DNA of 64,000 bases from an uncultured Gammaproteobacteria bacterium (GCA_964517135.1 CAZFBA010000002.1:89267-153266), one strand, 5' to 3'; shown: positions 3,323 through 61,259, numbered from the stretch's first letter. The notes: generated by a model not told the origin, from the letters alone. Program-made: numbers and translations.

Positions 3323-3338
3323 TAACACATATGTGTTA
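3323..3338. repeat. Copy 1 of a dispersed palindromic 16-mer TAACACATATGTGTTA at the convergent junction of 2517..3320(+) and 3336..3920(-)
   Basis: Perfect 16-bp palindrome. It starts 2 nt after the plus-strand stop codon and contains the minus-strand stop codon. Confidence 0.8.
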
Positions 3339-7498: not shown

Positions 7499-7499
7499 C

Positions 7500-29242: not shown

Positions 29243-31294
29243 TTGCTGCAAACCTACGTTCCTCTTTATAGAAAGTATCGTCCTCAAAGCTTTAAAGACC
29301 TGGTAGGCCAGGAAGCTATATCCAGAACTCTCTCTAATGCAATAAATCATAATAGAGTGGCTCATGCATACCTTTTTACAGGGCCACGTGGTACTGGCAA
29401 AACTTCTACAGCAAGGATATTAGCTAAATCTCTTAACTGTGAGAATGGACCGACAACAGAACCATGCGGCATATGCTCTAGCTGTCGTGATATTACAACA
29501 GGAAACGCTCTTGATGTTATTGAAATTGATGCTGCTAGCAATAATAAGGTAGAAGATGCCAGAGATCTTATTGATAGAGTGCAGTTTGCACCGGTGGCTG
29601 GCCGTTATAAGGTTTACATTATTGACGAAGTTCATATGCTAACTTCACAGGCTTTTAATACATTGCTCAAAACACTTGAGGAACCACCGCCAAATCTGGT
29701 CTTTATCCTTGCTACTACCGAAGCTCATAAGGTTTTAGATACGATTATTTCTCGCTGCCAGCGTTTTGATTTTAGAAGAATCTCTCAAGATGCCATGGTA
29801 AAAAGGCTTGAGGAGATTGCCATAAAAGAAATGATTGATATTAATCAGGAAGCCCTTAACCTTATAGCAAGACGTTCTGCTGGTGGACTTAGAGATGCTC
29901 TGGGCCTTCTTGATCAAATAAGTGTTCTCTCTAACGCAGGGCAAACTATAGATGCTAAAGATGTTTTAAACCTTATAGGTGCATTACCAGAAGATATGCT
30001 GGTTTCTTTGTCTGATGCTATAGCTCAAAAAAATGGTTCTCAGGTACTACAAATTATCAATGACCTTATGTCAATGGGTAATGAACCTCTTCAGATTATA
30101 AAAGAGCTTACAATACACTTCCGGAATCTTTTGATTGCCTCAACGGTTGATAAAAACCTGAAAGATGTTATCTATGCTTCTGAAGAGTTTTTTGATGACC
30201 TGAAAAGAATTGCTAAAGAGTTTAAAACTGTAGAGATAGCACAGATTATAGATAAACTCTCATACTCTGAAAGAATGGTAAGAAACTCAACACAGCCTAT
30301 TCTGTGGCTTGAAGTAGGTTTGGTATCTATTTGTTACAGGCATGAAATATTTGCAGTAGAAGAACTGCAAAAACGTGTGGATGATCTGGAGTGTATTGTT
30401 GCCACAGGTAAAGTGCCTCCTGAGATGACATTTGCCTGTCAAAAAGACACTGTAAGCAAAACAACTGTAATGCCTGCTAGAAAAGCACAGCCGCAAGAGA
30501 AAACACTGCCTGTACCAGATAAGAGTCTTGAAACTGCCACTTCCCCTTCAAAATCCAGGACTGAGACACTAAAGCCTTCTATGAATCTTTCTGAGCCTGA
30601 AGTAAAGCAGGAAAATACATTACCGGTTACTGAAAGTATCACCGAAAAGAATGAAAACGAGACAGAACTTTTAAGTAAACCTATAGAAAAAGAAAAAGCT
30701 GTAAAAACTGACCTAAAACCTCTGTCAGACAATGAAGAGACTAAATCTTATCCTGTTGATGCCACATGGCAGGCTATTGTAAATGCTATTGATAGTCCAT
30801 CTACAAAAGGAATCCTTACTAGTCTTGCTATTCCAATGGCTGTAACCTCTGAGGAGATAGTTCTGGGCTTCTCTCAAGAATGGATTATATCTGATATGAA
30901 TAAATCTAATAGAAAAGCTATTCTGGAAAGTGCTGTAAAACAGGCTATTGGGGCAACTCCACGTCTCGTTTATAAACTTATATCAGATAAAGAGTATAAA
31001 TCCTCACAAAAAGTTGCTGCTAAAGATATTTCTAGCAGTGAAAATACTTCAACGTCAACTTTAAAAACCAGCCAGAAAAATAATTTGTCTGCTTCTGTTG
31101 CAGTAAAAGAACCAGAGCAAAAGATAAATCAAGAAACTGTCTCTGAAAAAGAAGAAAAAATAACACCAGAGCTATCTGCTACGTCTTCAATGGATATGCA
31201 ACAGGCAATTCATAAACAGGTCACACAGGAATATTCCGAGCAGGCAAGACTGGTGATAGATATTTTTCAGGGGAAAATTCTTAATAATGATTGA
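29243..31294 (+). CDS. dnaX: DNA polymerase III subunit gamma/tau
   Basis: LYRKYRPQSFKDLVGQE, the Walker A motif GPRGTGKTS, a Zn-finger region CxxCxxC, and SRC. The TTG at 29243 has a gaggt RBS; the track's start at 29222 is an upstream TTG. The C-terminal half is long and low-complexity. Confidence 0.9.
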   Translation: MLQTYVPLYRKYRPQSFKDLVGQEAISRTLSNAINHNRVAHAYLFTGPRGTGKTSTARILAKSLNCENGPTTEPCGICSSCRDITTGNALDVIEIDAASNNKVEDARDLIDRVQFAPVAGRYKVYIIDEVHMLTSQAFNTLLKTLEEPPPNLVFILATTEAHKVLDTIISRCQRFDFRRISQDAMVKRLEEIAIKEMIDINQEALNLIARRSAGGLRDALGLLDQISVLSNAGQTIDAKDVLNLIGALPEDMLVSLSDAIAQKNGSQVLQIINDLMSMGNEPLQIIKELTIHFRNLLIASTVDKNLKDVIYASEEFFDDLKRIAKEFKTVEIAQIIDKLSYSERMVRNSTQPILWLEVGLVSICYRHEIFAVEELQKRVDDLECIVATGKVPPEMTFACQKDTVSKTTVMPARKAQPQEKTLPVPDKSLETATSPSKSRTETLKPSMNLSEPEVKQENTLPVTESITEKNENETELLSKPIEKEKAVKTDLKPLSDNEETKSYPVDATWQAIVNAIDSPSTKGILTSLAIPMAVTSEEIVLGFSQEWIISDMNKSNRKAILESAVKQAIGATPRLVYKLISDKEYKSSQKVAAKDISSSENTSTSTLKTSQKNNLSASVAVKEPEQKINQETVSEKEEKITPELSATSSMDMQQAIHKQVTQEYSEQARLVIDIFQGKILNND

Positions 31295-31994
31295 TAACCG
31301 TAAAGTATATGCCTTAATACCTGCCAGGGGCGGTTCAAAAGGTATACCTTATAAATCTATTGCACTGCTTAATAACAGACCACTTTTATCTTATGCTATT
31401 CATAATGCGCTGAAATCCTCTTATATAGATAGAATTATTGTATCAACTGATGATGAAAAGATTGCAGCAGTTGCGAAACAGTATGATGCAGAAGTTCCAT
31501 TTATGCGCCCTGCCTGTCTAGCTCAGGATGATTCATCAGCTTATGATTATATAATTCATGCATTAGAGTTTTTTAGAGATGAAGAGCTCTATTTGCCTGA
31601 TGTTATTGTTATATTACAGCCTACCTCACCTTTTTTATTGCCTGAAGATATTGATAATGCCTTAAAACTTTTTGTAGACAGGTCAGCTAATGCTTTAACT
31701 AGCCTGTATAAGCCTGATATCTCACCATACTGGTTTAAAAAAGTTAATGAAAACAACATTGTAAAAGATTTGATGCCGCAGCCGGCTTCTTACATCAGAA
31801 GACAGGATAATGAAGGTATTTTTCTCCTGAATGGTGCAATATATATTTATAACGTGAGTGCATTTTTAGAAAACTGTAGTAAAATAAATAATGAGAGGCT
31901 GGCTTATATTATGCCTTCCTCACGATCAATAGATATTGATACAGAAGAAGACCTGCAATTTGCAGAATTTCTGTTAAAGAAGGGTACAAATTGA
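31287..31994 (+). CDS. CMP-nonulosonic-acid synthetase (acylneuraminate / pseudaminate cytidylyltransferase, NeuA-like)
   Basis: The LIPARGGSKGIPxKxI ... IIVSTDD cytidylyltransferase motifs. Its start overlaps the dnaX stop (ATGATTGA). Confidence 0.8.
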   Translation: MIDNRKVYALIPARGGSKGIPYKSIALLNNRPLLSYAIHNALKSSYIDRIIVSTDDEKIAAVAKQYDAEVPFMRPACLAQDDSSAYDYIIHALEFFRDEELYLPDVIVILQPTSPFLLPEDIDNALKLFVDRSANALTSLYKPDISPYWFKKVNENNIVKDLMPQPASYIRRQDNEGIFLLNGAIYIYNVSAFLENCSKINNERLAYIMPSSRSIDIDTEEDLQFAEFLLKKGTN

Positions 31995-33040
31995 TTAAAA
32001 TAGGTAATAAACGAATAGGCCCCGGTAATCCGGTGTTTATAATAGCCGAGGCAGGCGTTAATCACAATGGAGATGTGGGTCTTGCCCGTAGGCTTATTGA
32101 TGCAGCCTACAATGCTGGTGCTGATGCTGTTAAGTTTCAAACCTTCAAGGCTAATAAGTTGATTAGTTCCAGAGCACCAAGCGGAGATTATAAATCTACA
32201 GGTGTGGATATTGCTCTTATAGAAAAGCTTGAGCTGTCATTGCAACATTATATTGAGCTTATTGCTTATTGTGATGATCTGGGTATTGAGTTTCTGGCTA
32301 CTCCTTTTGACTTTGGTAGTGTTAATTTGCTTGAAAAACTTCAGGCTAGGGCTTATAAAGTTTCTTCCAGTGACCTGAATAATATTCCCCTTCTCAGGCA
32401 TATTGCTTCAAAGAATTCTCCAATACTTCTTTCAACGGGTATGGGTTATTTAAGTGACATTGAAGAGGCTCTTATGGCGATCAGTGATACGATGAATACC
32501 CAGCTAATGGACCTTCCGCTTGTTTTAATGCACTGTGTTTCACGTTATCCTGCGCCGATGGAGCAGTTGAATCTCAATGCAATAAGAACACTCTATAATA
32601 CTTTTAAGCTCCCTGTAGGGTATTCAGACCATTCAATGGGGGTAGAAGCTGCCATGGCAGCTGTTGTTATGGGTGCATGTGTTATAGAAAAGCATTATAC
32701 ACTGAATAGAAACTTTCCCGGGCCTGATCATAAGTCTTCTATTGAGCCTGATGAGCTTGTGTTTCTTGTTGAATCTATAAGGAATATTGAATCTTCACTG
32801 GGTGATGGTATAAAAAGACCTGCTAAATGTGAGCTTAATACAATTGTGCTTAATAGAAAAAGTCTTGTAGCTGCTCAGGATATTAAAGCCGGACAGATTA
32901 TTACTGGAGAGATGCTTGAAATAAAACGTCCCGGATCAGGTATTGAGCCTAAATATTATGGGCTAATAATTGGAAAGACTCCGATAGTTGATATACCTGA
33001 AGATGAGATTATTACGTGGGATATGTTTCTTAAACATTAA
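31991..33040 (+). CDS. Nonulosonic-acid (sialic / pseudaminic / legionaminic acid) synthase, NeuB-like, with a C-terminal SAF domain
   Basis: The N-terminal IGNKRIGPGNPVFIIAEAGVNHNGD and the TIM-barrel NeuB pattern. TTG start that overlaps the end of the neuA-like gene. Confidence 0.8.
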   Translation: MIKIGNKRIGPGNPVFIIAEAGVNHNGDVGLARRLIDAAYNAGADAVKFQTFKANKLISSRAPSGDYKSTGVDIALIEKLELSLQHYIELIAYCDDLGIEFLATPFDFGSVNLLEKLQARAYKVSSSDLNNIPLLRHIASKNSPILLSTGMGYLSDIEEALMAISDTMNTQLMDLPLVLMHCVSRYPAPMEQLNLNAIRTLYNTFKLPVGYSDHSMGVEAAMAAVVMGACVIEKHYTLNRNFPGPDHKSSIEPDELVFLVESIRNIESSLGDGIKRPAKCELNTIVLNRKSLVAAQDIKAGQIITGEMLEIKRPGSGIEPKYYGLIIGKTPIVDIPEDEIITWDMFLKH

Positions 33041-34546: not shown

Positions 34547-36103
34547 TTAGCTAAACTGCATCATTTGAGTACCAAACATCTGTAGCATATTTGGTGTTTG
34601 GCCTGCAAAAGTGTTGAGTTGTTGCTGTGTTGCCATAACTTTTTGATAGGTTTCTGTATCACTGAGGTTATTTTGTCCTCTGGGGTTTGCACCTGTATTC
34701 ATTGATCCTGTTGTTGAGTTGTTGAGCTTACCTATCTGGTTAAAAGCATTTATATTAGAGGGGTTTGTTTTGTTAACTGCAATGTTAGAAAGAGTATTAA
34801 CAGCCTCTTTGGAAGTTGAACCTCCTTCTGATGCAATGTTGCCGAGTAAACTAACGGCGTTATTTCTTACTTTACCGTTAGTACCAGGATCCTGGGCTAC
34901 TGATCTGATAGTTTCCATACCTTCTTGAGCACTGGCACTGCCGGATTTGGCTATTTCTCCAAGCTCTGAAAGGGCTAACTGTGCTCTTGATGGGTTATTA
35001 TCTTTAGAGAGTTTCTGGAGTCCACTTAGTGCATGTCCATTACCATTAAGGGCAGCTTCTTTGAGCATTTGTGCAGCTCTGGTTGCAATTTCTACAGGTT
35101 CTGAGTGGACTGCCTGGGTGAGTCCTTTGGCGGCTTCTTTACTTCCTGCCCCTGTTGGAGATTCTTTTGCAATTTCTCCCAGTATATTGACTCCTCCCAT
35201 GCGGTCTTCTTTAGAAAGATTACCTCTTTTCATCAGTGTATTAATAGCTGATGCTGTTTGTGCAGGGTCTTTATCCTTGGCTTCGCTGGCAACTTTAGTA
35301 AAATTAATGGCACCTTTCTTTAACAGGCCTTCAAAGGCTTCCTGTGCTCTGGGGTTTCTATCTGTCAAATGTAGCAATTTGGTTGCAGCTTCACCTGATC
35401 GTTCTGTTGGAGTGCTGGCTATCATTTCCAGAACTTGAGGTCTACCTTCTGCTCCGGCAATTACCTGATCTATACCTTTTCCTGCGTTCTCTTGCAGCTT
35501 TTCAAAGGGGTTTTTGCTGTAGTCATTTAACTTGATAAATGCTTTTTTATTGCCCATTAAAGCCTGTTCAACAAGAGCATCAACGGCTTTTTGAGGATCC
35601 AGGAGGGCTTCTGGCTCAACTGTTTTCATCAGGTCTCCGATATCCGGTCTGTCCTTGAGGTCCTGTGGAAGTTGTTTAAAGAGTGGATCCTGTTTGACTT
35701 CTTCTGGTATCTGCTTTAGATAGGTTTGGTCAGGTTTTTTGTTAGATAAGCGTTTTTCATGCTCCTGTATTTCTGCTTGTGCCTGACTTATTTGAGGCAG
35801 TATATCAGGTTTTTGTGGGTTATTGTTTTGTGGTTGCAGTGATTGGAAAGCGGTTTGTTTTTGATCTTTTGATAAAGATTCGTTAGCATAAAGGTTATAG
35901 GCAGCAAGGTTATTTAAATTGTTTATGATCTTTGACGGATCTTGTGTTTGTTGTTGCTGCTGTTGTTGTGTTTGATTTTCCTTTTCATTGTCTGCTTCCC
36001 GGGGAGCCAATTGTTGTTGAAGTTTTTCAACACGACATTGAGCAGCTTTGAGTTGCTGCGTTATTAACATTTGTTGATTTTGAGAGTTTAGGTGTACTGT
36101 CAA
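34547..36103 (-). CDS. Gln-rich low-complexity protein (518 aa) with a C-terminal array of ~30-aa Ala/Leu-rich repeats (HEAT / PBS-lyase-like); unknown function
   Basis: N-terminal polyQ region (QQQQQQQTQ, encoded by CAA/CAG runs at 35940-35975) and repeated xxAxxALxxIAxxG units in the C-terminal half. No signal peptide. The start is uncertain: the track's start is a TTG, and the first ATG is 11 codons downstream. Confidence 0.5.
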   Translation of the reverse strand: MTVHLNSQNQQMLITQQLKAAQCRVEKLQQQLAPREADNEKENQTQQQQQQQTQDPSKIINNLNNLAAYNLYANESLSKDQKQTAFQSLQPQNNNPQKPDILPQISQAQAEIQEHEKRLSNKKPDQTYLKQIPEEVKQDPLFKQLPQDLKDRPDIGDLMKTVEPEALLDPQKAVDALVEQALMGNKKAFIKLNDYSKNPFEKLQENAGKGIDQVIAGAEGRPQVLEMIASTPTERSGEAATKLLHLTDRNPRAQEAFEGLLKKGAINFTKVASEAKDKDPAQTASAINTLMKRGNLSKEDRMGGVNILGEIAKESPTGAGSKEAAKGLTQAVHSEPVEIATRAAQMLKEAALNGNGHALSGLQKLSKDNNPSRAQLALSELGEIAKSGSASAQEGMETIRSVAQDPGTNGKVRNNAVSLLGNIASEGGSTSKEAVNTLSNIAVNKTNPSNINAFNQIGKLNNSTTGSMNTGANPRGQNNLSDTETYQKVMATQQQLNTFAGQTPNMLQMFGTQMMQFS

Positions 36104-36516
36104 ACTACCAACTCCAACAATTGTGGCAATTGTTTGTTGCCCTGAACCAGTTTTATCTTATGTGTCAGATATGCTCCAGTTTTCAGAGTCTTTGATAGTG
36201 GTTGTTTTAGTGTTTAGGCCGGTATACCCGGTAAAAGCATGCTAAAATGCTCTATTTTTATAAAAACACATGGTGCTGTCAAATTACCTGAAATTTTTTG
36301 TTTTGCAAATAAAATTTACAAATGTTAACTTTTTGTCTGTTGTGAGGCTTATTTTTTATGGAATCCCTATTGGGGTAATGTTTTTGCTCTGTCAGGTGCT
36401 TGAAGCTCTGTTATGAAATGATTTTGCTTAAATCTGAATTGGTGTGTGTTTGTAAACTCCTAGTTTTATAACATTTATCCTGTATAATAGATTATTAAGT
36501 AGGTTGTTTTGAAAAT

Positions 36517-37905
36517 TTGAGGAACAAAGAGGTGAATTACAAGGTTCTGAGTGCGATTTTATCTGTAGTAATGGTTATGTTGCTTTTGCCGCAAGCTGTT
36601 ATGGCACAGGGATCTGTGAATTCGTTAAACAGTGTTAAGGTACAATCAGCTGGTGATAATGCTGTTGTTGTTGATGTGTATGTGAATTCTAGTGATGCAG
36701 TGGCAAAGCCTCAGATAAGTTCCAGAAAATATTCTAAAGATAAGTTTATTATAGATCTAATCAATGTTCAGGATCAGGGTGGGGCAACTAAAGATACTTC
36801 AGGATCAGCAGGGCTCGTTAATAGTTCAAGTTTAAAGATTGGTAACCTTCCTGGAGGCTCATCTTCAAGGGTTTTAATTGATCTTGATAATCCTGATATT
36901 AATGTAAAAGAGGTCAGGTATCATGTTGTTAGTCAGAGCAGCTTACCTACTACAACCGTAGCAAGTAAGCCTGAAGAGAAAGCTTCTCAGGTACAGCCTT
37001 CAAAGCCAGAGCCTGTTGTTAAACCCGAGCCAAAACCGTCAGTAAAGCCTGAGCCAAAACCACAATCACAACCTAAGGCTGAACTAAAGCCAGAGACAAA
37101 GCCTGAACCAGAGAATCAATCTCAATCTCAACCTCAAGCAAAAGCGGAATTATCTGTAGTAAAATCTTCACCTGAAAAGAAATCCGGACCGGTAGTAGTT
37201 CATAAGACTGATAAGCCAGCTGTTACACCTGAAAAAACTTCGGCTCCTCCTGTAAAGCCTGAATCTAAGGATAAATCAGAGGCAAAACTTACAATAGATA
37301 AAAAGACCATAGTGCAGGCAAAGCCAGAAGAAAAGCCTGCTGAACTATCGTCAAAACCTTCTGAACCATCTGCCCCTGAAAATATTGAGCAGGTACCGAT
37401 TAATCTCGGGGATGATCCACCAGCAGGAAGAAATATCAGGTCTATAGATGTGAAAGATGATGAATTAGATTATGGTCAGATGATTACAACATTTGGCTGG
37501 GCTCTTTTGATTGTTATACCTTTGATTCTGGTAGTTATCTGGGTTATGAGTATGGTATATAAAGGTGGAGAGCCTATGGGGCTTAAATCACTTGCCGCAG
37601 GCGGTGGTAACAGGTTTAAGATCATATCTTCTACTTCACTCGGCCAGGGTAAAAGTGTTCATCTTGTTGAAATAAAGGGCAGGCAGCTTGTTATAGGATG
37701 CACAAATAATAGTATTAATATACTGACAGAGTTTGACGAGTTTGATGAATTTGTTGAAGATAATAAGTCTGTTGATACCCATACTGCTCAGTCTTCAAGG
37801 CACGATAAATACAGAAGATCAAGACCTCCTACAGGTAGTTTTTCTGATTTATACAAAGATTATAAGAAACGAATAGATGAAAACGACCTCGAAGACGAGT
37901 ATTAG
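36517..37905 (+). CDS. fliO: Flagellar-biosynthesis FliO-domain protein with a long N-terminal extracytoplasmic extension (signal peptide + AMIN-like domain + Pro/Lys/Glu-rich linker)
   Basis: The TM helix plus FKIISSTSLGQGKSVHLVEIKGRQLVIGCTNNSINIL matches the FliO core. E. coli FliO, recalled from memory, reads LKISASASLGARERVVVVDVEDARLVLGVTAGQINLL. The N-terminus has a cleavable-looking signal peptide and a beta-rich AMIN-like segment. Confidence 0.6.
   Translation: MRNKEVNYKVLSAILSVVMVMLLLPQAVMAQGSVNSLNSVKVQSAGDNAVVVDVYVNSSDAVAKPQISSRKYSKDKFIIDLINVQDQGGATKDTSGSAGLVNSSSLKIGNLPGGSSSRVLIDLDNPDINVKEVRYHVVSQSSLPTTTVASKPEEKASQVQPSKPEPVVKPEPKPSVKPEPKPQSQPKAELKPETKPEPENQSQSQPQAKAELSVVKSSPEKKSGPVVVHKTDKPAVTPEKTSAPPVKPESKDKSEAKLTIDKKTIVQAKPEEKPAELSSKPSEPSAPENIEQVPINLGDDPPAGRNIRSIDVKDDELDYGQMITTFGWALLIVIPLILVVIWVMSMVYKGGEPMGLKSLAAGGGNRFKIISSTSLGQGKSVHLVEIKGRQLVIGCTNNSINILTEFDEFDEFVEDNKSVDTHTAQSSRHDKYRRSRPPTGSFSDLYKDYKKRIDENDLEDEY
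37006..37150. repeat. In-frame PEPKP-type short tandem repeats (AAGCCTGAGCCAAAACC units) forming the linker of the FliO-like protein
   Basis: The repeats are visible in both the nucleotide and protein sequence. Confidence 0.6.
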
Positions 37906-37908
37906 TCT

Positions 37909-38577
37909 CTATTTTGAACATTTAATATAGAATGAGCAGAAATCGACGCCGCTGCTTTTGTTTGTTTCTATTTTGCAGTCGAGTTCAGCAGATTCAAGTA
38001 TTTTGTGGAGAATTTTAAGTGCAAATTTGCTTAAAAGGTTATATTTAAGGATAGAGTTATAGAAATCGCAGTTATACTCTCTGATAACGTAACTATAGTC
38101 ATCGATTTTTTCCCACTCTGCCATAGAACCCCAGGCCCTGACCAGTGAAGTCATTGTATCTACTTTTTCATCAAGGGTTTTATCTTCTAATTCATATTTG
38201 CAGAGGGCATAAATACGTTCTGCAATGTTGTCAAAGATTAGATCTACTTTTTCAGGGCCGTCAATTCTTTCTATTTCGTTTAGTATCATACTGAGAAGAA
38301 AGTCATATCTTTTAGGAAACAGGTTATTGGCCAGCTCTGTTAAAGAATAAAGTATTTTAGGCCTGCCTGCTCCGTGTCTAATGGTTATAGATTTGATTAA
38401 TTGGTCTCTTTCAAGGGCTGCAAGATGCTGACGTATACTTGTAGGCGCCAGTGACAGGCTTTTACTTATATCATCAACCGTGGCACCACCCTGCTTTTTG
38501 ATGATACGCAAGATCTCATTTTTAGGAGGCTTTAGTACGCTCCGGTTGAATATGTCAACTTGTTCTCTTTCCTGCAT
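37909..38577 (-). CDS. Winged-helix (ArsR-type HTH) transcriptional regulator with a C-terminal domain of unknown function
   Basis: ILRIIKKQGGATVDDISKSLSLAPTSIRQHLAALERDQLI...GRPKILYSLT is an ArsR / HTH_20-like recognition helix and wing. Confidence 0.55.
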   Translation of the reverse strand: MQEREQVDIFNRSVLKPPKNEILRIIKKQGGATVDDISKSLSLAPTSIRQHLAALERDQLIKSITIRHGAGRPKILYSLTELANNLFPKRYDFLLSMILNEIERIDGPEKVDLIFDNIAERIYALCKYELEDKTLDEKVDTMTSLVRAWGSMAEWEKIDDYSYVIREYNCDFYNSILKYNLLSKFALKILHKILESAELDCKIETNKSSGVDFCSFYIKCSK

Positions 38578-48551: not shown

Positions 48552-50597
48552 CTATGAATTGATCCCGGTATTCTTCTTTTTAAAGTGTTTATAAAGGATG
48601 CACTGTTCATCTTTTATGAATTGGAAGGCTATAATGGATAATAGTATGGATCCGGCACCGACTAAAAAGGCTATTGACCAGTTATGTGTTTCTCCAAGCG
48701 GTGTCATCATTGGTAACTGTGATATTATCCATCCTACAATGGTTGCAGATATGAGTTGTGGCCCTGCTATGAATAGGTTAAATATACCCATAAAGGCACC
48801 TTCTTCACCTTCGACCATGTGATCACATAGATATGAGTAAGGTATTGACAGTATAGTTGCCCAGGCCACGCCGGCGAAAGCCATCATCGTTATAACTCCT
48901 GTGTGACTTTGTACCAGTGGTGCGCATGCAAAGGCACCAACCATGAAAAGCAATGATACAGAATAGACAATCTTTTTACCTGTTCGTAAACAAATGTATC
49001 CTATAGGTATTGACAGGATAAGGCTTATCAGATTAAAGGCTACCAGGCCTGATTGAGCTGTATTTGTTGCTTCAAGATCCAGTATTCTGATTTTTCTGTA
49101 GTTATCTATTGTGAGAAACTTTTTAAATATGGCTGGCAGGGTTGTTATTGAATCTTTCTGGTATTTGAAGATCTGTTTTTTGACTAATTTTTCACTGATT
49201 TTTTCCTTCATCTCTTTTTCTAGCGTTCTGTTCATTGTTGAAAGTTTCTGAAGATCACTGGATTCGCTTTCAAAATTTATTTTTCCTGCCAAAGTAATAT
49301 TATTATTTTTAAAAGTGTTGCTCAGTGCTGAATATTGGATTAGCATTGTTTGGTAGTCGAAAAGTTCTTTTGCTTCAACTAGATTCAGAAGACTTTTTTG
49401 TGTTTTATTGTCCAGAGTTGATGTTTGTATCTTATTGGTGAGTGTAGATTTTTCAGTGGACTTTTTAGCCAGAGATTTAATTTCTTGTCGGTACTTATTC
49501 TGGTAGATTTCAGGATCGGTTAATAATCCTTTTATCAGTATATTAAGCTCTTTATTATGATTATTAAGTGTTGTTTCTTCTGAATTAATCATTTTACGTT
49601 GCGTTTCTGATATTTTGCCTTTTGATAGAGTGGTTTTGATAGTTTGTTTTACATCAGGTACATTATTGAATCTGTTTGTTATGGTGTTTAACTGCTTAAA
49701 AGTATTATCTGACAGCTTATCAGATGAATTGATCTCGTTAATTATCGGGTTTAAAGTTTCATATTGGTGTTCAATTTGTTTATATTCTTTAGTAGATAGA
49801 TCTGGTATGTGGTATACATAGTGAACTGTATATGGCGTAAGGTATATGAACATACACATGATACCCATCCATGTTAATAGCTGTATCAGGCATATTTTAT
49901 GTATCTCTCTATCAGCTTTGAGAAACTTTTTATAGAATGTTAATATTGATTCTTTTTTCTTTGAGTCTTGAATAGCTTTTGATTTTGGATATTCTCTTAT
50001 TGTTAGTGAAGTATATATAATGAAGAATAGGAAAGCAATAGCAGCCATTATGTATTGCTGGCCAATAGTCATCTGAATATCGAAAAAACGGAGGATTGGT
50101 GCTACTGAAAGAGCGATAACGCTTCCTGCGCCGAAGGCAAAGTTTATATAAGCGTTGGCTACAGGGTGCTGCTCAGGTGGAACGTTATCAGGCACAAGGG
50201 CTCTGTATGGGCCCTGTGAGATATTTACGCATGCGTCGATGATCCATATGAAGAGAACAGCGACCCATAGATAAGGCGAAAAGGGGAAGAATATAAGTGC
50301 TATAGCTCCTAAAAATGCACCAACAAGCAGAAATGGTCGTCTTCTGCCTATTCGTGTCCAGGTTTTATCTGATATAGCCCCTACTATTGGTTGTACCAGC
50401 AAGCCTGTAATTGGTCCTGCACACCATATAAGGCCATATAAAAATGGGTTGGCTCCTAGTGGTTCTAAGACTCTGTTAGATAGTGCTATTTGCATGCTCC
50501 ATGTGAACTGGATACCTATGATGCCAGCACATAAATTAAAGAGTTGAAAAGTTGTTAGACGTGGAAGCCTGGTTTCTTTCTCCTTAGAATCGCTCAT
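48552..50597 (-). CDS. MFS / GPH-family sugar:cation symporter resembling sucrose transporters (SUT / SLC45-like), with a ~260-aa coiled-coil-rich insertion in the central cytoplasmic loop
   Basis: The N-terminal six TM helices carry a TWTRIGRRRPFLLVG motif (RxGRR in the loop between TM2 and TM3). A long hydrophilic Lys/Asn/Gln/Glu-rich insert is followed by six more TM helices. Confidence 0.65.
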   Translation of the reverse strand: MSDSKEKETRLPRLTTFQLFNLCAGIIGIQFTWSMQIALSNRVLEPLGANPFLYGLIWCAGPITGLLVQPIVGAISDKTWTRIGRRRPFLLVGAFLGAIALIFFPFSPYLWVAVLFIWIIDACVNISQGPYRALVPDNVPPEQHPVANAYINFAFGAGSVIALSVAPILRFFDIQMTIGQQYIMAAIAFLFFIIYTSLTIREYPKSKAIQDSKKKESILTFYKKFLKADREIHKICLIQLLTWMGIMCMFIYLTPYTVHYVYHIPDLSTKEYKQIEHQYETLNPIINEINSSDKLSDNTFKQLNTITNRFNNVPDVKQTIKTTLSKGKISETQRKMINSEETTLNNHNKELNILIKGLLTDPEIYQNKYRQEIKSLAKKSTEKSTLTNKIQTSTLDNKTQKSLLNLVEAKELFDYQTMLIQYSALSNTFKNNNITLAGKINFESESSDLQKLSTMNRTLEKEMKEKISEKLVKKQIFKYQKDSITTLPAIFKKFLTIDNYRKIRILDLEATNTAQSGLVAFNLISLILSIPIGYICLRTGKKIVYSVSLLFMVGAFACAPLVQSHTGVITMMAFAGVAWATILSIPYSYLCDHMVEGEEGAFMGIFNLFIAGPQLISATIVGWIISQLPMMTPLGETHNWSIAFLVGAGSILLSIIAFQFIKDEQCILYKHFKKKNTGINS

Positions 50598-50758
50598 TTT
50601 AAAAATTACCTTCTGGTTACTTTTTTACAGAGGGCTTTTTGTTTATGCCCATAACGAAATCTATTTTATATTCCTTATTAACACTAACACCTGCTGTTCT
50701 GGAATGAAAGTAAGCTTGTTGAGAAATTTACATTTTTATTCAATAGTGTTAAAACACT

Positions 50759-52105
50759 TTATTCAAGGTAGAAAAAAGGTTTTTGTGTATCTTTAAAAAC
50801 TTCCAGTGCCATAAGGTAGGTTGCTGCGCTCCATGTTTGATTAGCGTTAGAGATATTTTCTACGAATTGACCGCTATTCCCATCTACCCATTCGGGCATG
50901 TTATCTTTTAAGCTTTCTGTAATTACTTTAAGCTTTTCGTATGCGTCTTTAGTGTTCTTGTTTTTTATTAGAATAGTTATGTATATGTTTCCGATGAATG
51001 GCCAGATCCCGCAGTTCTGGTAATAATATGGATCGGAGGTTTCATCGGCTGGTACTAGCTCTTGCAGTTCATATTTTGATAGTGCTGGCCATAGTATCTT
51101 CATTGGATATGGCTTATCAATATCGTTTATTTCTATATAATTTAGTATTTGTTCAGTTTCTTTATCTGTTGTAATACCAAATGCTATAGCCATGAGGTTG
51201 GCAAGACTGTCAAACCTGTAATCATAATAGCCTGTTCTGACTGATGCTATAAAATAGCCACTATTTTTGAGTGTTCCTCTGTGTTCACTTTCTGTTGTTT
51301 TGATGTTAAAGGGGTTTTTCTGTCTGTATGAAAATTCATCGTTGCGGTGAAAGCTTTTTGGTATTATGGTATTTAACTTATCCAGTTTTGTCTGGTTGAT
51401 CCAGAAGTATTCTTTAATAAGAGCTTTAATTTTAGAGGCATAATCCTGGTATATTTTTCTGCTATCCTCAGAAAAAAACTCTTTAAGGTCTGAAGCAATT
51501 CGTAAAGCTCCGTAGAGTAAGACCTGGTTATATGCAACATATCCATAAAGCTTGTGCGGCCTGTCAATATGAGTAGTACAGTCTATTGAAGCTATAAGAG
51601 GACATGGATCAAACAGATTATTTTCTATTGAAAGGTTTAATGCGGCTTTATAGGCGGTTTTGATATTGTCATAAAAATCTTTGTTACTGGTTTTTTTAAG
51701 AAATTCACCAGTTAGAATCAGGTAAAGAAGAGTTGAATCGATAGAATGTATATGTCCTATAGTACTGGTTGTACCTTCAATAAGGTTATCGTTATCTGGA
51801 TTAATAGAAATAGGAACTCTTCCACACTGGTTAATTTTTTTTGATAACATCAGGAGGTAGTTTTCAGGATGTTCGTACGTTCCTGCTGTCAGGTCATACA
51901 GCAAAGAGTATATGTTATCCCTTGTCCATAAAAACTTATAGTCAGGATGTTTGATTTCACTAGTACCTAGTGCCATATATCCCTGAAAATTACCGTTTTT
52001 AGTGAAGATAGTTGCATTATTTAAAACCTCTCTCGCTTTTTGTGCTGTTTTATCAAATATACTAAGGTCTAGATGCTTTGTATAATGCTTATATTGTCTG
52101 TTCAA
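50759..52105 (-). CDS. Six-hairpin (alpha/alpha)6 glycosidase-like protein, probably GH100 (neutral/alkaline invertase-like)
   Basis: TIGHIHSIDSTLLYLILTGEF resembles the GH100 IGRVAPVDSGLWWIIL motif as recalled from memory. It also has a C-terminal QNCGIWPF. TTG start with an aaggag RBS. Family assignment is tentative. Confidence 0.45.
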   Translation of the reverse strand: MNRQYKHYTKHLDLSIFDKTAQKAREVLNNATIFTKNGNFQGYMALGTSEIKHPDYKFLWTRDNIYSLLYDLTAGTYEHPENYLLMLSKKINQCGRVPISINPDNDNLIEGTTSTIGHIHSIDSTLLYLILTGEFLKKTSNKDFYDNIKTAYKAALNLSIENNLFDPCPLIASIDCTTHIDRPHKLYGYVAYNQVLLYGALRIASDLKEFFSEDSRKIYQDYASKIKALIKEYFWINQTKLDKLNTIIPKSFHRNDEFSYRQKNPFNIKTTESEHRGTLKNSGYFIASVRTGYYDYRFDSLANLMAIAFGITTDKETEQILNYIEINDIDKPYPMKILWPALSKYELQELVPADETSDPYYYQNCGIWPFIGNIYITILIKNKNTKDAYEKLKVITESLKDNMPEWVDGNSGQFVENISNANQTWSAATYLMALEVFKDTQKPFFYLE

Positions 52106-52269
52106 ATTTCAAATCTCCTTTATTTAAAGGTCTTTATGATCTTATCAGGTGTTTTCATTGATTAATATAATTCACTATCTTACCATAATTTATGAATAAT
52201 ATTAATAATAGAGCCTCCTTCATCTGTAAATCAGGAGGCTTTTCTTATTATAACCCTCATTTGCAGAAA

Positions 52270-54372
52270 TTATATTTTCAACCACATTTTCTGGTAAGGT
52301 TTAAGCATAATTTTAAGGCTGTTTTGATCTGATGTGATGCCTATTTGTTCCTTTGTTATAAGATCAATTGCTTTGTTATTATTCTTTTTAAGGTTTTTCA
52401 GGTTGTCAGGGCTAACATTAAAGCATGCTTCTAGTTTTTGATCAGACAGATTATTTATAACCAGAACTTTATCATCATCTTTTACTCTTATATAAGAAAG
52501 TATTTCAGGTTTATCAGATTCTACTTTGTTGAATGAGCCTCTTCTTAAAGCTATATTGTCTTTTCGGGCTTTGATCATGTCTTTAACCGTATAGAAAATT
52601 TTTGCTTTATAGGTATCTTTTTCTTCAAGAACTTTGTAGAATTCATCTTTTTCGATAGGGCCTCGGTTAATATCTCTGCTGTCATAGAAGCTAATGACTT
52701 CGATATCTTTATCTTTTTCTCTTTGAACACGTTCACGCTCTTCAGCTGCCATTTCAGCGTATTTAAGGTTGTTTTGGGCTCCGATTTCATCGCCATAATA
52801 GATTATAGGCATACCTGGCAGTGATAATAAAATAGAGTAGGCCAGAGTTATTCTGCTGGGGTCTTTATCAAGAAAATCTGCCATTCTTCCACTAACACCG
52901 AGGCCTTTTCTGAATTCTTTACCTTTTGAAATGAGCTTGTCATAAATGATTTTACGTGTTTCAATATCGACCATTTCAAGAGTAAGTTCATCATGAACTC
53001 TTAAAAACATTGCCCAGGTAGCAGATGGAGGTATTTCAGGTGTTATTTCATCAGCTTTCCAGAAAGGTTCGTTATTTTCTGTTATTAATGATGCCCATAT
53101 GGCAGGCATATATGGGAAGTGGTATCCTATTTGTACTTCATCTGTTCGAACAAGCTTTCTATCGGGCTGCACAAGTATCGAATTATCTTCTCCGTATTGT
53201 ATTTGAATGTTTCTTGGAGGCAGTGTATTTTCTGTTCCAAAGTATGGAAGAATATCTTCAGGCCACTGACAGGCTTCAGCCAGCATAATTGAACGAGGAC
53301 CTGTAGCCTGTAATGTAGAGCTGATAAGCTTAACTACTTCATGTGTTTCCGGTAAGTTCTCTGCATTAGTGCCTTCTTTCTTTATAAAGTAAGGTATAGC
53401 ATCGACTCTGAATATATCTACCCCAAGGTTATTCCAAAATGCAACTATTTTGAGTACTTCATACATTACTTCAGGGTTTTTCCAGTTGATATCAGGCTGA
53501 AATGGATAAAAAGTGTGGTACACATAGTAGTCTTTGTCGCCGATCATTATTTTTCTATAGTGGCTTTCAGCAATATCAGGGAATATAAGTCTTCTTGATG
53601 ATACTTTACCATCATCCTCATAATAATCAACGATAATACCTTTCTGTTCATCACGATATTTCTTATATTCCGGACGGTCTTCTCTGTAAACAAAATAATT
53701 TAGCTTGTCAAGGTCTCCGGCCAGTGCTTCCTGGAACCATTTATGCTGGTCAGAAAAGTGGTTCAGAATGAGATCTGCTTTAATTTTGAACCCTCTTTTG
53801 CGTGCTTGATAAATGAAATTTCTGAATTCTTCCATTCCGCCAAGTTCTTCACGTACATTATTGGGATCTCTAACGTCAAAACCTGCGTCACCCATAGGTG
53901 AATCCATAAAAGGCAGCATGTAAATGGTTGTTATGCCAAGCTCTTCCAGATAGTCAAGCATTTCAACCAGGTCGTTAAAAGTGCTGGGCTTATTATTGGT
54001 CCGGCCAAAGTGTTCGGTGTAAAACATATATACAATTTCATCTTTGTACCAGTCTGAAATTCTGTTGATATCGTTTTGATGAAGCTTTACCGGTCTTTTA
54101 TCTTTTGCGTTATTAATGATTTCCAGTACTTTTGGGTAGATTTCATCAACCTGGTTTTCTCCGTAAATTTTAGTCAGAGAGCTTTTAATATTCTCTTTTA
54201 GCTGGTCTGGTATTTCGGCAGATGGGTTAATAGAGATTTTTTGATCGGTAGTAATAGTCTCTTTTAAAGATTTCTGGGTAATTGTTTCTGCTATAGTGTT
54301 ATTAATGGTTAAGCAGGATACAATTAATAAACTTAAAATACTTGTAAGCAGGTGTCTTTTTTTAGTTTGCAT
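52270..54372 (-). CDS. Secreted GH13 alpha-amylase-family enzyme of the TreS / amylosucrase / sucrose-isomerase type (alpha-glucosyl transferase / hydrolase)
   Basis: A signal peptide (MQTKKRHLLTSILSLLIVSCLT). GH13 region I ADLILNH. Region II GVDIFRVDAIPYFIKKEGTNAENLPETH, which closely resembles TreS LFEREGTNCENLPETH as recalled from memory. Confidence 0.7.
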   Translation of the reverse strand: MQTKKRHLLTSILSLLIVSCLTINNTIAETITQKSLKETITTDQKISINPSAEIPDQLKENIKSSLTKIYGENQVDEIYPKVLEIINNAKDKRPVKLHQNDINRISDWYKDEIVYMFYTEHFGRTNNKPSTFNDLVEMLDYLEELGITTIYMLPFMDSPMGDAGFDVRDPNNVREELGGMEEFRNFIYQARKRGFKIKADLILNHFSDQHKWFQEALAGDLDKLNYFVYREDRPEYKKYRDEQKGIIVDYYEDDGKVSSRRLIFPDIAESHYRKIMIGDKDYYVYHTFYPFQPDINWKNPEVMYEVLKIVAFWNNLGVDIFRVDAIPYFIKKEGTNAENLPETHEVVKLISSTLQATGPRSIMLAEACQWPEDILPYFGTENTLPPRNIQIQYGEDNSILVQPDRKLVRTDEVQIGYHFPYMPAIWASLITENNEPFWKADEITPEIPPSATWAMFLRVHDELTLEMVDIETRKIIYDKLISKGKEFRKGLGVSGRMADFLDKDPSRITLAYSILLSLPGMPIIYYGDEIGAQNNLKYAEMAAEERERVQREKDKDIEVISFYDSRDINRGPIEKDEFYKVLEEKDTYKAKIFYTVKDMIKARKDNIALRRGSFNKVESDKPEILSYIRVKDDDKVLVINNLSDQKLEACFNVSPDNLKNLKKNNNKAIDLITKEQIGITSDQNSLKIMLKPYQKMWLKI

Positions 54373-54689
54373 GTTGTAATTCCCTTCTGTATGTGATTGA
54401 AAGTCATTTTGTATTTTTTGAGTATATCAATAATAACACAATCCGCATTACATTAAATTTAATGCAATACGCTTCTGTATCGACGTGGTCAATCCTGTAA
54501 ATGTAATTTTTACTAAAACAATAATAGTGTTTTACTTACCATGTTTTGATATGCTTAAATTCTTGCCTGGGTTTTTTATTTAGGGATGTTAATTTTTTAA
54601 AATTCTTGTGCTGTCTTGATTTACCTTTAAGAAACATTACACATCGTAACAATTAATAACTAAAATGATTCTTAATTGACAGGTAATAC

Positions 54690-54718
54690 TTGCATGGTCT
54701 TTTTCTCTTTGTTAATAT
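54690..54718 (+). promoter_or_regulatory. Candidate sigma-70 promoter for the rplJ-rplL operon (TTGCAT-17-TAATAT), followed by a ~160-nt leader containing stem-loops
   Basis: A -35 / -10 pair with a 17-bp spacer. The downstream leader has the inverted repeat TCTGTGA...TCACAGA at about 54822-54853, consistent with an L10 autoregulatory leader. Confidence 0.35.
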
Positions 54719-54881
54719 TACGCAAATAAACAGGAAAAGCCGCAGACAGCAGGTACTAAAAGTTTAATTGGTTTCCAAGCAGCCTGCCGAGGTAAATTTT
54801 AAAATTTAATCCTTGAATTCTGTGTTTCTGTGAGCTTTTCTTTTCACAGAAATTTTTTATGAAAGGAGGGTGATTAGCTGA

Positions 54882-55412
54882 ATGCCCATTACCAGAGAAC
54901 AAAAGGCGAATAAGATTGATAAAATTAAAGAAGAGATTTGTAAATCTTCAGTAGCTATAGTAACGGATTATCGTGGTTTAACAGTAGAAGAAATTACCGC
55001 TTTAAGACGTAGCCTTCAAGAAGTAGATGCTGAATATTCAGTGGTTAAAAATACTTTAGCTGATATAGCTGTAAAAGATACAAATTATGAAGCTCTTCAG
55101 GGCTTTTTAACAGGTCCTACGGCTTTAGTGCTTGGGCGTAAAGATCAGGTTGCACCAGCTAAAGTACTTACACAATTTATCAAAAAAGCAAAAAAAGTTT
55201 CTATAAAAGGTGGAGTTCTTGATGGAAGTGTGCTTAATGAAGATCAGGTTAAGCAACTTGCAGATATTCCATCTATTGAAGAGCTTTATGCCAAGATGCT
55301 CGGAAGTATTAACTCACCTGCTACTGGTATTGCTACATGTATAAACAACGTTATGAGAAATATGGTTGTTTGTATAGATGAAGTGAGAAAGCAAAAAGAA
55401 GCACAGGGATAG
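54882..55412 (+). CDS. rplJ: 50S ribosomal protein L10
   Basis: The uL10 pattern. A ggagg RBS. Confidence 0.9.
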   Translation: MPITREQKANKIDKIKEEICKSSVAIVTDYRGLTVEEITALRRSLQEVDAEYSVVKNTLADIAVKDTNYEALQGFLTGPTALVLGRKDQVAPAKVLTQFIKKAKKVSIKGGVLDGSVLNEDQVKQLADIPSIEELYAKMLGSINSPATGIATCINNVMRNMVVCIDEVRKQKEAQG

Positions 55413-55480
55413 TTAAAATCTCTGTAAAATCTGTGAATAAAAAGTAAGACATGTGATAAATAATAAGAGAGGAGTAAATA

Positions 55481-55861
55481 ATGAGCCCAGTTGTAGACGA
55501 AATCCTAGAAAAAATTGAAGGACTTACACTATTAGAAGCTGCAGACTTAGTAAAGAAAATGGAAGACAAGTTTGGTGTTAGTGCTGCTGCTGCTGCACCA
55601 ATGATGATGGCTGGCCCGGCTGCTGGAGCCCCTGCTGAAGAAGCTGAAGAGACAGATGTAGATGTAATTCTGGCTTCTGTCGGCTCACAGAAGATACCGG
55701 TTCTTAAAGAAATCCGTGCAATGACTGGCCTCGGACTTAAAGAAGCCAAAGAACTTGTTGATAATACTCCTAAGCCAATTAAAGAAGCTATTAAGAAAGA
55801 AGAAGCGCAAGAAATTAAGAAAAAACTTGAAGAATTGGGCGCAACTATTGAGATTAAGTAG
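55481..55861 (+). CDS. rplL: 50S ribosomal protein L7/L12
   Basis: The N-terminal dimerisation helix, an Ala/Pro-rich hinge ([20 protein letters not shown]), and the C-terminal domain [12 protein letters not shown]. Confidence 0.95.
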
Positions 55862-55878
55862 AGTCAATACTCTTTATT
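55860..55878 (+). terminator. Weak stem-loop (attenuator-like) immediately after rplL
   Basis: AGAGT-caat-ACTCT followed by a T-rich run. Only a 5-bp stem. Confidence 0.25.
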
Positions 55879-56135
55879 CTTTATGTTAAATTTTGTTTAA
55901 ATGGATTCTTGTCAATAAAATCCTAGTTTTAGAAAGCGCTTTATCCAATTAATGCTTGCTATATGCACCGTGCCTGTTATAATTCATGGGAATAATTTAT
56001 TATTCCCATGCATTGACTCTTTTGCTTGATGCTATAGTATGTAAATTAGTCGAATTTTACTTAATAATTAGTTATTTAATTGGATTATAATCAGTTACAT
56101 AGAACATAGTGCAGCACATATAGGCGAGGTAGGTA

Positions 56136-59100
56136 ATGTCTACTAAATTTAAACCCCGTGTAAACCCTTATGAAGGTATTACATTTTCTCATATTTCAGA
56201 ATTACCAGACTTGGCTGAAATCCAGAAGAATTCGTTCAACTGGTTTTTGACTGAAGGCCTGAAAGAAGAACTGCTTTCATTTTCACCTATTAAAGACTAT
56301 ACAGGTAAGCTAGAACTCCACTTCTTGCCCAGTTATACTTTTGATAATCCCAAGTATTCTATTGAAGAAGCTCGATTGCATGATGCCAGTTATACCAAAC
56401 AACTCAGGATAATGATGCGTTTGGTTAACCGTGATACTGGTGAAATTAAAGATCAAGAAGTTTATGTAGGTGATATACCTATGATGACTGATAAAGGCAC
56501 ATTTGTTATTAATGGTGCTGAAAGGGTTGTTGTCAGTCAGATTGTTCGTTCTCCTGGTATATACTATAAAAAGGATATTGCACCTAATGGTAAACGTATC
56601 TTTAATGCAACTCTTATACCTAACAGAGGTGCATGGCTTAAGTTTGAAACAGATGTTAATGATGTAGTTTTTGTTAAAATCGATAAAAACCGCAAGATTC
56701 TTGCTACAACATTACTTAAAGCTCTTGGTATCAGTACATCAGAGATGGGTAGCTTGTTCAGTCATTCTGAGTTTCTTAATAAAACCATTGATAAAGATGC
56801 TACAGAGACAATGGATGATGCCTTAATTGAAGTTTATAAAAAACTAAGACCGGGTGATCCTCCATCTGTAAGCGGTGGAAGAACTATTATTGAGAGCAGA
56901 TTTTTTGATGATAAACGTTATGACCTTGGCAGAGTTGGACGTTACAAGGTAAATAAAAAACTTGGGCTTAACCTCCCTGAAACTCAAAGAACGCTTACTG
57001 TTCAGGATATTGTTGCTTCAATAGACTATCTGATTGGCCTTTATTATGATGATGGTTATGTTGATGATATTGATCACCTTGGCAATCGTCGTATACGTTC
57101 AGTTGGTGAGCTTCTACAGAACCAGTTTCGTATAGGTTTAACTCGTCTTGAGCGTATTGTCAAAGAAAGAATGACACTGCAAGATTCAGATACATTGACA
57201 CCAGGTAATTTGTTGAATACTAAGCCTTTAGTTGCAGCTATTAAAGAGTTTTTTGGATCTTCTCAGCTTTCACAGTTTATGGATCAAACAAATCCGCTGG
57301 CAGAGTTGACACATAAACGAAGGTTATCAGCTTTAGGGCCTGGTGGTCTTGCTAGAGAAAGAGCAGGGTTTGCTGTTCGAGATATTCACCCCAGTCATTA
57401 CGGTAGAATATGTCCGGTAGAAACACCTGAAGGTCCAAATGCCGGTTTGATAGGTAGTCTTGGTACTCACGCAAGGGTCAACCCTTATGGTTTTATTGAA
57501 ACTCCTTATCGTAAGGTTAAAGATGGTATTGTAACTGCAGAAGTTCATTATCTTGCGGCTGATGAAGAAGATAACTTCAGGGTTGCACCCGGTGATGTAA
57601 AACTCAATGATGACAAGACATTTGCTGATGTCATTGTACCAAGTCGCTATAAATCTGAGTTTACACTTTCTGAAAGTTCAAGGGTTGACTATGTTGGTGT
57701 TTCTCCTATTCAGATTATCTCTGTGGGTACAGCATTAATACCATTTCTGGAACATGATGATGCTAACCGTGCACTGATGGGCTCAAACATGCAACGTCAG
57801 GCAGTTCCATTATTGCGTTCAGAAAGGCCTCTAGTTGGTACAGGTCTTGAAAAACGAGCTGCTCAAGATTCAGGGATGGTTATTGTCTCCAGAGACGAAG
57901 GCGAAATAATTAAAGTTACAGGTGAAGAAATCCATATCGACACAGGGATGGGTATTTCTAAATATCCATTAATGAAATATGTACGCAGCAATCAGGATAC
58001 CTGTTTGAATCAGCGTCCTATTGTATCAATGGGTGAAAAAATAAAAGTCGGAGATGTTATTGCTGATGGTGCCTCTACAGATCTTGGTGAACTGGCACTC
58101 GGACGTAATATACTGGCTGCTTTTATGCCCTGGGAAGGCTTTAACTATGAGGACTCAATATTAATCAGTGATAGATTGGTTCATGATGATGTATTTACAA
58201 GTATTCATATTGAAAAACTTGAAATAGATGCAAGAACTACAAAGCTTGGCCCTGAAGAAATTACCCGTGAGGTTCCTAATGTTTCAGAAGATAGCTTAAG
58301 ACATCTTGATGAGATTGGAATTGTAAGAATAGGTGCCAGAGTTTATGCAGATGATATCCTGGTAGGAAAGATTACACCGAAGGGTGAATCTGAACATCCA
58401 CCTGAAGAGAAGCTCTTAAGAGCAATATTTGCTGAAAAAGCTAGAGACGTAAGGGATAACAGTTTAAGAGTTCCTCACGGTGAAGGCGGGCGTGTGCTGG
58501 ATGTTAAAGTATTTGACAGAGAAAAAGGTGATGAGCTACCTCCTGGCGCAAATACAGTTGTTAGAGTGTATATTGCTCAAAAACGAAAAATCAGTGTAGG
58601 CGATAAAATAGCAGGCAGACATGGTAACAAAGGTATTATTTCTCAGGTATTACCAAAAGAAGATATGCCTTTCTTGCCTGATGGTACTCCTGTAGATATA
58701 GTTCTTAGCCCGTTAGGTGTACCCAGCCGTATGAATGTAGGTCAGACTTATGAAACAATGCTTGGTCTGGCTGCATATTTACGTGGTATTAGTTATGAAG
58801 TACCACCGTTTGATGAGATGTTTGGTGAAGAAGCTTCACGTAATATGGTCAACAAAGAGCTTAAAAAAGCCAAAGAGCAAACAAACATAGACTGGATACA
58901 CGATGATGGTAAGGTTGTATTATATGATGGTAGAACTGGTGAACCATTTGACTATCCGGTTTCTGTTGGTTATATCTATATGCTGAAATTAGTACACCTT
59001 GTAGATGATAAAATCCACGCTAGAAGTACAGGTCCTTATAGTCTTGTTACCCAGCAGCCGCTTGGTGGTAAGGCTCAGTTTGGTGGTCAGCGTTTCGGAG

Positions 59101-59447: not shown

Positions 59448-59494
59448 ATTGGTGAAACTACTTCAGGGCAGAGATTAAGAAGGAGAAATAAGCG

Positions 59495-61213: not shown

Positions 61214-61259
61214 AACCTTTTTAGTTGTCAGATAATACAGATAAAAGAGGACTGTTTCA

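Follow-up and report, generated by a model that had tools for sequence, protein, structure and literature searches.

FliO is a near-universal component of the flagellum's type III secretion system (fT3SS), as was recently described in a survey of >30,000 genomes in which its core was defined as a transmembrane (TM) helix plus a cytoplasmic beta-sheet, embedded in proteins of 80 to >500 amino acids (aa) (Andrianova et al. 2025, PNAS, PMC12403147). According to this survey, an N-terminal periplasmic AMIN domain was acquired by FliO in Campylobacterota, Nitrospinota, Myxococcota, Deferribacterota, Bdellovibrionota and a number of further phyla. In Campylobacter jejuni, fliO belongs to a fliNO operon, and its AMIN domain, at roughly codons 21-118, is required for FlhB stability, full amphitrichous flagellation and colonisation of chicks (PMC12403147). 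In Salmonella, FliO is a scaffold or chaperone for FliP and for assembly of the export gate (PMC5542437). Singleton or non-flagellar FliO homologues occur in Chlamydiia, in some Rhizobiales and in the virulence type III secretion systems (vT3SS) of Myxococcota; the main text of the survey does not name Cyanobacteriota (PMC12403147). Here, we describe a fliO gene within a 64,000-nucleotide stretch of DNA (CAZFBA010000002.1:89267-153266; this whole stretch is called the window below). Its open reading frame (ORF), called at 36517..37905 (+), starts at TTG 36517 and encodes 462 aa, according to which residues are numbered throughout. We put at about 0.7 the probability that this gene encodes the functioning FliO of the flagellum in a flagellin-encoding member of the Vampirovibrionia (Melainabacteria).

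The FliO core and the N-terminal beta domain

The C-terminal part of the protein matched the FliO family PF04347 over aa 357-417 (E=3e-13, 50.1 bits compared with a gathering score of 22) and the whole NCBIfam FliO model TIGR03500 over aa 330-406 (55.7 bits, cutoff 55.25). The FliO profile was also recovered in 10/10 orthologues tested (39-48 bits), and the window protein additionally gave a weak match to the NCBIfam family FliZ (E=2e-4). The core, delimited by PF04347, TIGR03500 and AlphaFold (37585..37767, +), comprises a four-stranded antiparallel beta-sheet (aa ~367-403) and an acidic helix (aa ~406-417), and its residues are near-invariant in the family alignment. In the AlphaFold model of the C-terminal alignment, the TM helix occupied residues 11-40 of the C-terminal segment and the strands residues 59-68, 71-78, 81-87 and 92-95. 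Model confidence was a mean pLDDT of 63, with 82-91 in the helix and about 70 in the sheet, and the tail was mostly disordered apart from a short helix over FSDLYKDYK. The model thus contains the TM helix and the cytoplasmic antiparallel beta-sheet by which the structural core of FliO is defined. A sequence-profile search of the PDB with the C-terminal part returned no relative, its sole match, a TM-helix match to SERCA, being spurious. Judged by homology of the core, the gene is a genuine FliO.

Only two hydrophobic segments were detected in a hydropathy scan, one at aa 6-30, which ends in VMA|QG, and one at aa 322-348. The first belongs to a predicted signal peptide (36517..36606, +; aa 1-30, hydrophobic core aa 10-28) that ends in A-x-A or AED in the orthologues. 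The second is the peak of the single TM helix (37471..37560, +; aa 319-348), which is also helical in the AlphaFold model. Since the hydrophobic segments amount to a signal peptide and one TM helix, the topology predicted from sequence implies a periplasmic N-terminal domain and a cytoplasmic FliO core. The original prediction had proposed both the N-terminal signal peptide and a C-terminal FliO core with its TM helix, and both stand.

Between the N-terminal domain and the TM helix lies a low-complexity spacer rich in Pro, Lys, Glu and Ser (36937..37470, +; about aa 141-318; P 18%, K 15%, E 12%). It is 176 aa long in the window protein and 138-342 aa across the family, and three small islands inside it are conserved (GPxVVHKTD, LxxQA and EQxPxNL). 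The PEPKP tandem repeats proposed earlier are present as short imperfect KPEPKP motifs, but these reflect compositional bias: Tandem Repeats Finder detected no DNA tandem array of substance in the linker, and the tandem-repeat interpretation was rejected. Downstream of the core, the protein ends in a near-invariant and predicted cytoplasmic tail, RPPxGSFxDLYKDY...(D/E)LEDEY-COOH (37822..37902, +; aa 436-462), in which F442, L445, Y446, K447, Y449, E459, D460, E461 and Y462 are invariant in the family alignment. No counterpart of this tail is known, and it might serve as a docking motif.

Among 5.8 billion proteins, a word-indexed search found 16 full-length relatives of 401-636 aa, all with precomputed FliO matches; those few with a name originate from metagenome-assembled genomes of Vampirovibrionia or Cyanobacteriota. 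Scans of a genome collection and of metagenomes with narrow back-translated patterns gave 2 and 4 loci, respectively. The family alignment is built of five modules, namely the signal peptide, the conserved N-terminal domain, the spacer of variable length, the TM helix with the nearly invariant core, and the near-invariant tail. The strong conservation of the N-terminal domain, core and tail and the retention of every invariant family residue in the window protein argue for a functional protein under purifying selection. The DNA of the window and of loci L001 and L002 is identical over fliO, so that no population variants were available for an analysis of nonsynonymous and synonymous substitution rates (dN/dS).

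The N-terminal domain (36607..36936, +; aa 31-140) directly follows the signal peptide and precedes the sole TM helix. It is conserved, with a mean column identity of 72% in the 16 orthologues, and AlphaFold, run on a 16-sequence sub-alignment, modeled it with confidence as an all-beta domain of eight strands (pLDDT 87, pTM 0.81). In the original prediction it was called AMIN-like. When the 16 orthologous N-domains were scanned alone, 6/16 matched AMIN (PF11741), all in an identical register. One of the 16, the P0004 domain (62% identity with the window copy), exceeded the gathering score of 20.5 by reaching 24.7 bits; three others scored 17.6-19.3 bits, below that threshold. Genuine AMIN domains may score as low, as the same model gave 20.8 bits with Escherichia coli AmiB and 76 bits with AmiC. 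An hhalign comparison with an AmiC/AmiB alignment paired the core motifs that are expected to correspond (VVVDI / RVGQ..VRMVFEL with FIIDL / KIGNL..SRVLIDL). The AMIN fold, which we take to consist of two four-stranded beta-sheets (AmiC 4BIN, PilQ B2 4AQZ), is compatible with eight strands, and the position of the domain is that of the AMIN domain in published AMIN-FliO proteins.

Several results weigh against this assignment. AMIN did not match the window N-domain in Pfam even at E<=10, nor were matches obtained in 10/16 orthologues. A Foldseek search of the N-domain model against the PDB gave nothing at E<=0.001; AmiC was poorly ranked, as was the AMIN domain of PilQ (4aqz), which came ninth with E=1.2 and a TM-score of 0.18. 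The hhalign comparison reached a probability of 2.6% (E=0.017), so that neither structure nor profile comparison confirmed the family. No relative was found in a PDB sequence-profile search with the N-domain, and when 1.84 billion representatives were searched exhaustively with HMMER, only the 12 clusters of the family and no other AMIN protein came back, which confines the domain to one subfamily. It might then be a lineage-specific, non-AMIN periplasmic beta-sandwich with another target, such as a component of the outer membrane or of a flagellar ring or disc, or some other protein. The single register shared by six orthologues, the score above threshold in one of them, the paired core motifs, the low score of AmiB, the strand count and the position of the domain count against this possibility, which we consider doubtful and which is compatible with a flagellar role of the protein as a whole. 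In our view the N-domain is probably AMIN in a highly diverged form, an assignment that is the least secure step of the argument, and as such it is predicted, most likely, to bind peptidoglycan.

Shorter FliO proteins of 197-287 aa were recovered with a profile of the TM helix, core and tail. Six of these short proteins have in common with the long family a YK(E/D)YL motif in the tail and a periplasmic part of low complexity, and the beta N-domain is lacking in 6/6. An examination of orthologue architecture, which the original prediction had suggested, therefore gives a divided picture: N-domain, core and tail are conserved in the 16 orthologues, but the short relatives lack the beta N-domain, for which reason the AMIN-like module appears either to have been gained in one sublineage or to have been lost from others.

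Flagellins and gene order in the lineage

A look-up of the window's RpoC1 led to a 252-kb contig (L019) that matches positions 49495-64000 of the window with 100.000% identity over its first 14,506 bases. Beyond rpoC2, this contig carries four intact tandem flagellin genes (L019 17184-21128, -; window-equivalent about 66678-70622), just past the window end and about 29 kb from fliO. Their products, 285-286 aa in length and canonical at both termini, are mutually 42-59% identical. The fliO gene thus occurs in a genome with flagellar genes. The original prediction had described it as encoded away from any flagellar operon; this holds inside the window, where flagellar, pilus and chemotaxis genes other than fliO were not found, but not for the region downstream with its four flagellin genes. 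Small ORFs of 169, 74, 195, 70 and 151 aa accompany the flagellins on L019; they have no Pfam match and could be filament accessory genes.

Relatives of the gene are found in a chemotaxis setting. In P0009, P0014 and the metagenome locus L021, fliO is immediately preceded, on its own strand, by a cheA-cheW-HDOD-cheC-cheD-cheY cluster, and the six-gene cluster is placed between the gene for a 518-aa protein (or neuB) and fliO at L005 (4396-10000) and L006 (3975-10000). In P0022 and P0021, a short fliO follows cheY and is itself followed by neuB, a hydrolase gene and a gene for a motility accessory factor of the Maf type. On the 2.58-Mb contig with P0022, a pair of flagellin genes is located 8 kb upstream. 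The order cheY-fliO-neuB-hydrolase-Maf was also seen in UBA9579/AMFJ01007738 and in L024. Judged by gene order, fliO of this lineage belongs to a neighborhood of che and flagellin-glycosylation genes and not to fliOPQR.

At the window locus the che genes are absent, and no remnants of them were found upstream of fliO (36104-36516, a 414-bp intergenic region). The cluster is also missing at the loci of the P0002 and P0006 genomes, where the protein is fully conserved. The window locus is a derived state without che genes. The gene looks orphaned because its position in the lineage is the end of the che cluster and the che genes are absent here. The order that remains (dnaX, a neuA-like gene, a neuB-like gene, in some cases an epimerase gene, the gene for the 518-aa protein, fliO, a winged-helix (wHTH) regulator gene and a gene for a BcrAD-type ATPase) is conserved among orthologous loci and persists down to 43-49% identity. 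The most divergent orthologue, P0016, has fliO in an unrelated context.

That fliP, fliQ and fliR are not adjacent, as had been noted before, is correct: they are absent beside fliO and across the 64-kb window. The separation had been regarded as remarkable, which it is not, since it is the normal gene order in the whole lineage and since fliO of Campylobacter likewise lies outside fliOPQR. Nevertheless, the absence counts against a flagellar role, as do several other results. Probes of E. coli FliM, FliN, FliO, FliP, FliQ and FliR gave no match in the window or within 10 kb of fliO at about 20 related loci, and fliP, fliQ, fliR, flhA and flhB were not seen in 71 kb of this genome. The margin over the TIGR03500 cutoff is only 0.45 bits, and a second, canonical fliO may lie next to fliP in this genome. 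In addition, some Gastranaerophilales retain only remnants of flagellar genes (PMC4040986). No flagellar genes were found in the region beyond the left window edge.

A FliO-domain protein that has been co-opted for a non-flagellar job, for example as a membrane chaperone of another envelope complex, had been offered as the alternative in the original prediction. The monocistronic gene in a window otherwise free of flagellar and che genes would fit such a role, as would the full conservation of the protein where the che cluster of relatives is missing (at the window locus as well as in P0002 and P0006), the unrelated context of P0016, the documented non-flagellar FliO homologues (PMC12403147) and the degenerate flagellar gene sets of some Gastranaerophilales. 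However, about 29 kb from the gene this genome has four intact flagellin genes; in orthologues and shorter relatives, che, flagellin and Maf genes surround fliO; and no alternative partner system is evident nearby. Loss of che genes with retention of flagella has, moreover, already been described: gut Melainabacteria lack chemotaxis genes while their flagellar gene sets are mostly complete (PMC3787301). Because flagellins were found on the same genome, a co-opted orphan FliO was rejected as the principal interpretation, and we regard it as unlikely. With a working flagellar FliO as the preferred reading, fliPQR would be located elsewhere in the genome. In the melainabacterial genome ACD20, fliP-fliQ-fliR are contiguous, and melainabacterial flagellar genes are reported to branch with those of Firmicutes (PMC3787301).

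Gene start and neighboring genes

GTG 36532 is likelier to be the start codon of fliO than TTG 36517, because it is preceded by a GAGGA Shine-Dalgarno sequence (36519-36523, 8 nt before the GTG) and gives the 457-aa database product P0001. The coding sequence is then 36532..37905 (+) and its 457-aa product is 100% identical to P0001. Flanked by a divergent gene on one side and a convergent gene on the other, fliO is monocistronic. A candidate extended -10 promoter element, TGTATAAT, was read from the sequence at 36481..36488 (+), within the 414-bp intergenic region common to fliO and the divergent upstream gene; a consensus promoter scan did not list this element, which lacks a good -35. By eye, no sigma-28-type promoter was recognized upstream of fliO, only the extended -10.

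The neighbors of fliO are those of the original prediction, a Q-rich protein with weak HEAT-like repeats and a regulator; the matches of the regulator are of the ArsR/MarR type. The divergent gene (34547..36103, -) encodes the 518-aa protein, with a Q-rich N-terminus, the repeats (HEAT_2 at 28.2 bits) and a Q/N/M-rich C-terminus. It matched no NCBIfam family, shares 55% identity with its L005 counterpart and is retained in L001, L003/4, L005 and L008, divergent from fliO or from the che cluster. The winged-helix regulator gene (37909..38577, -) is convergent with fliO, as in all examined loci of the AMIN form except L007. Its product is the most conserved neighbor (78% identical to the L005 copy), and its best NCBIfam match was cyanobacterial SufR with 70 bits, far under the cutoff of 178.8. 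The neuA-like (CTP_transf_3) and neuB-like genes (31287..33040, +) are syntenic with fliO across the lineage. This pair is likely a remnant of a flagellin-glycosylation island, to which a functional link would follow from the relatives; a Maf gene was not found in the window.

The window also carries genes of a housekeeping kind: dnaA, rnpA, yidC, mnmE, dnaX, the rplKAJL-rpoB-rpoC1 block and a cluster resembling xanthine dehydrogenase. The β' subunit gene is split into rpoC1 (59495-61213, +; 572 aa) and rpoC2 (1289 aa), which runs off the window. Splitting of rpoC1 and rpoC2 is a hallmark of cyanobacteria, and its occurrence here fits that lineage and is consistent with an origin in the Vampirovibrionia. 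A trio of genes for a GT2 glycosyltransferase, a flavin amine oxidase and a PMT_2-like membrane glycosyltransferase (5260-9350, +) lies 27 kb from fliO; the same trio is found directly upstream of fliO in P0016 (L007 5217-8948). The only signaling genes in the window are one for a GGDEF diguanylate cyclase (531-1646, +) and one for a response-regulator receiver protein (3336-3920, -) that is extended by 75 aa at its N-terminus and is only 29% identical to the CheY of the lineage. The cumulative GC skew climbs steadily over 1-64000, with no switch of sign at dnaA/rnpA/yidC/mnmE (about 20.7-25.6 kb).

Proposed function and comparison with described FliO proteins

At the inner membrane, the conserved job of FliO would fall to the TM helix together with the four-stranded cytoplasmic beta-sheet, which may chaperone assembly of the FliP/FliQ/FliR/FlhB gate, judging by homology with Salmonella (PMC5542437) and C. 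jejuni. Cleavage of the signal peptide would leave the N-domain in the periplasm on a flexible Pro/Lys-rich tether of 176 aa. By binding to peptidoglycan, this domain could anchor or position FliO, and hence nascent export gates, relative to the cell wall, and a cytoplasmic partner probably docks at the invariant acidic tail. A FliO variant linking assembly of the export gate to the wall was one of the two options put forward in the original prediction. It is now the better supported of these by the FliO core, the architecture, the flagellins and the context of the orthologues, but the evidence for AMIN is weak. It is a long shot that the tethered AMIN-like domain reads a particular peptidoglycan, for example septal or polar, and thereby fixes the sites of the FliPQR/FlhB gate and of the flagellum, with the DLEDEY tail recruiting a che-coupled partner. 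In an alternative reading of the same speculative kind, the protein would have gained an envelope role independent of motility, which would explain its retention without che genes.

Through this gene, the AMIN-FliO architecture would reach the Vampirovibrionia, a non-photosynthetic class that is sister to Cyanobacteria. A gain of the domain inside this class is suggested, because sister genomes possess a che-linked fliO without it. The order cheY-fliO-neuB-Maf of the lineage explains the orphaned look of the gene and may aid annotation, as such genes can be mistaken for co-opted FliO-like proteins. Natural variants, with spacers of 138-342 aa and an invariant tail, provide material with which the effect of a periplasmic anchor on export-gate assembly can be tested.

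The short FliO proteins of related genomes of the Cyanobacteriota or resembling Vampirovibrionia (P0019-P0024, UBA9579; 213-330 aa) share with the window family the slot after cheY, the TM helix and a core that is 31-49% identical. An LNLxDFP-like motif within a periplasmic stretch of low complexity is likewise common to both, as is an acidic tail that contains YK(E/D)YL. They differ in having no beta N-domain and in retaining only YK(E/D)YL of the long-family tail. Bacillus subtilis shows a related arrangement, as its fla/che operon has cheY followed by fliO (annotated FliZ). It shares the cheY-fliO order with this lineage, and the weak FliZ match of the window protein points in the same direction; however, fliP-fliQ-fliR directly follow fliO in B. 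subtilis, where the lineage described here has neuB and Maf, or the regulator, and the B. subtilis protein is without an AMIN domain. FliO of E. coli and Salmonella (121-125 aa, encoded in fliLMNOPQR) likewise consists of a TM helix and a cytoplasmic FliO domain, whereas the window protein has about 320 extra periplasmic residues and a predicted cleavable signal peptide, and its gene is not beside fliP. A tblastn search with E. coli FliO gave no match to the window FliO, which is expected in a fast-evolving family.

The singleton FliO homologues (PMC12403147) resemble the window gene in that a FliO-domain gene lies outside a flagellar operon. Their genomes are, however, devoid of flagellar genes or have fliO in other operons, whereas this genome has four flagellin genes and relatives tie fliO to che, flagellin and Maf genes. 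The predicted order of parts in the window protein is that of the AMIN-FliO proteins of C. jejuni and others (PMC12403147), in which a periplasmic AMIN-type domain is followed by one TM helix and the cytoplasmic beta-sheet core. With C. jejuni FliO the window protein further shares a gene outside the fliOPQR operon and a predicted role in envelope anchoring of an export-gate chaperone. It differs from the AMIN-FliO proteins in coming from another phylum (Cyanobacteriota, class Vampirovibrionia), in an AMIN-like domain too divergent for profile search to reach other AMIN proteins, and, as a member of the long family, in the Pro/Lys-rich spacer before the TM helix and the near-invariant DLYKDY...DLEDEY tail. 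In addition, fliO follows cheY in this lineage, whereas it follows fliN in C. jejuni. Taken together, the window protein most likely belongs to the known AMIN-FliO architecture and is not a new system, because such fusions were published in 2025 (PMC12403147); specific to its lineage are, besides the divergent AMIN-like domain, a long spacer, a tail that is conserved and a position linked to che genes.

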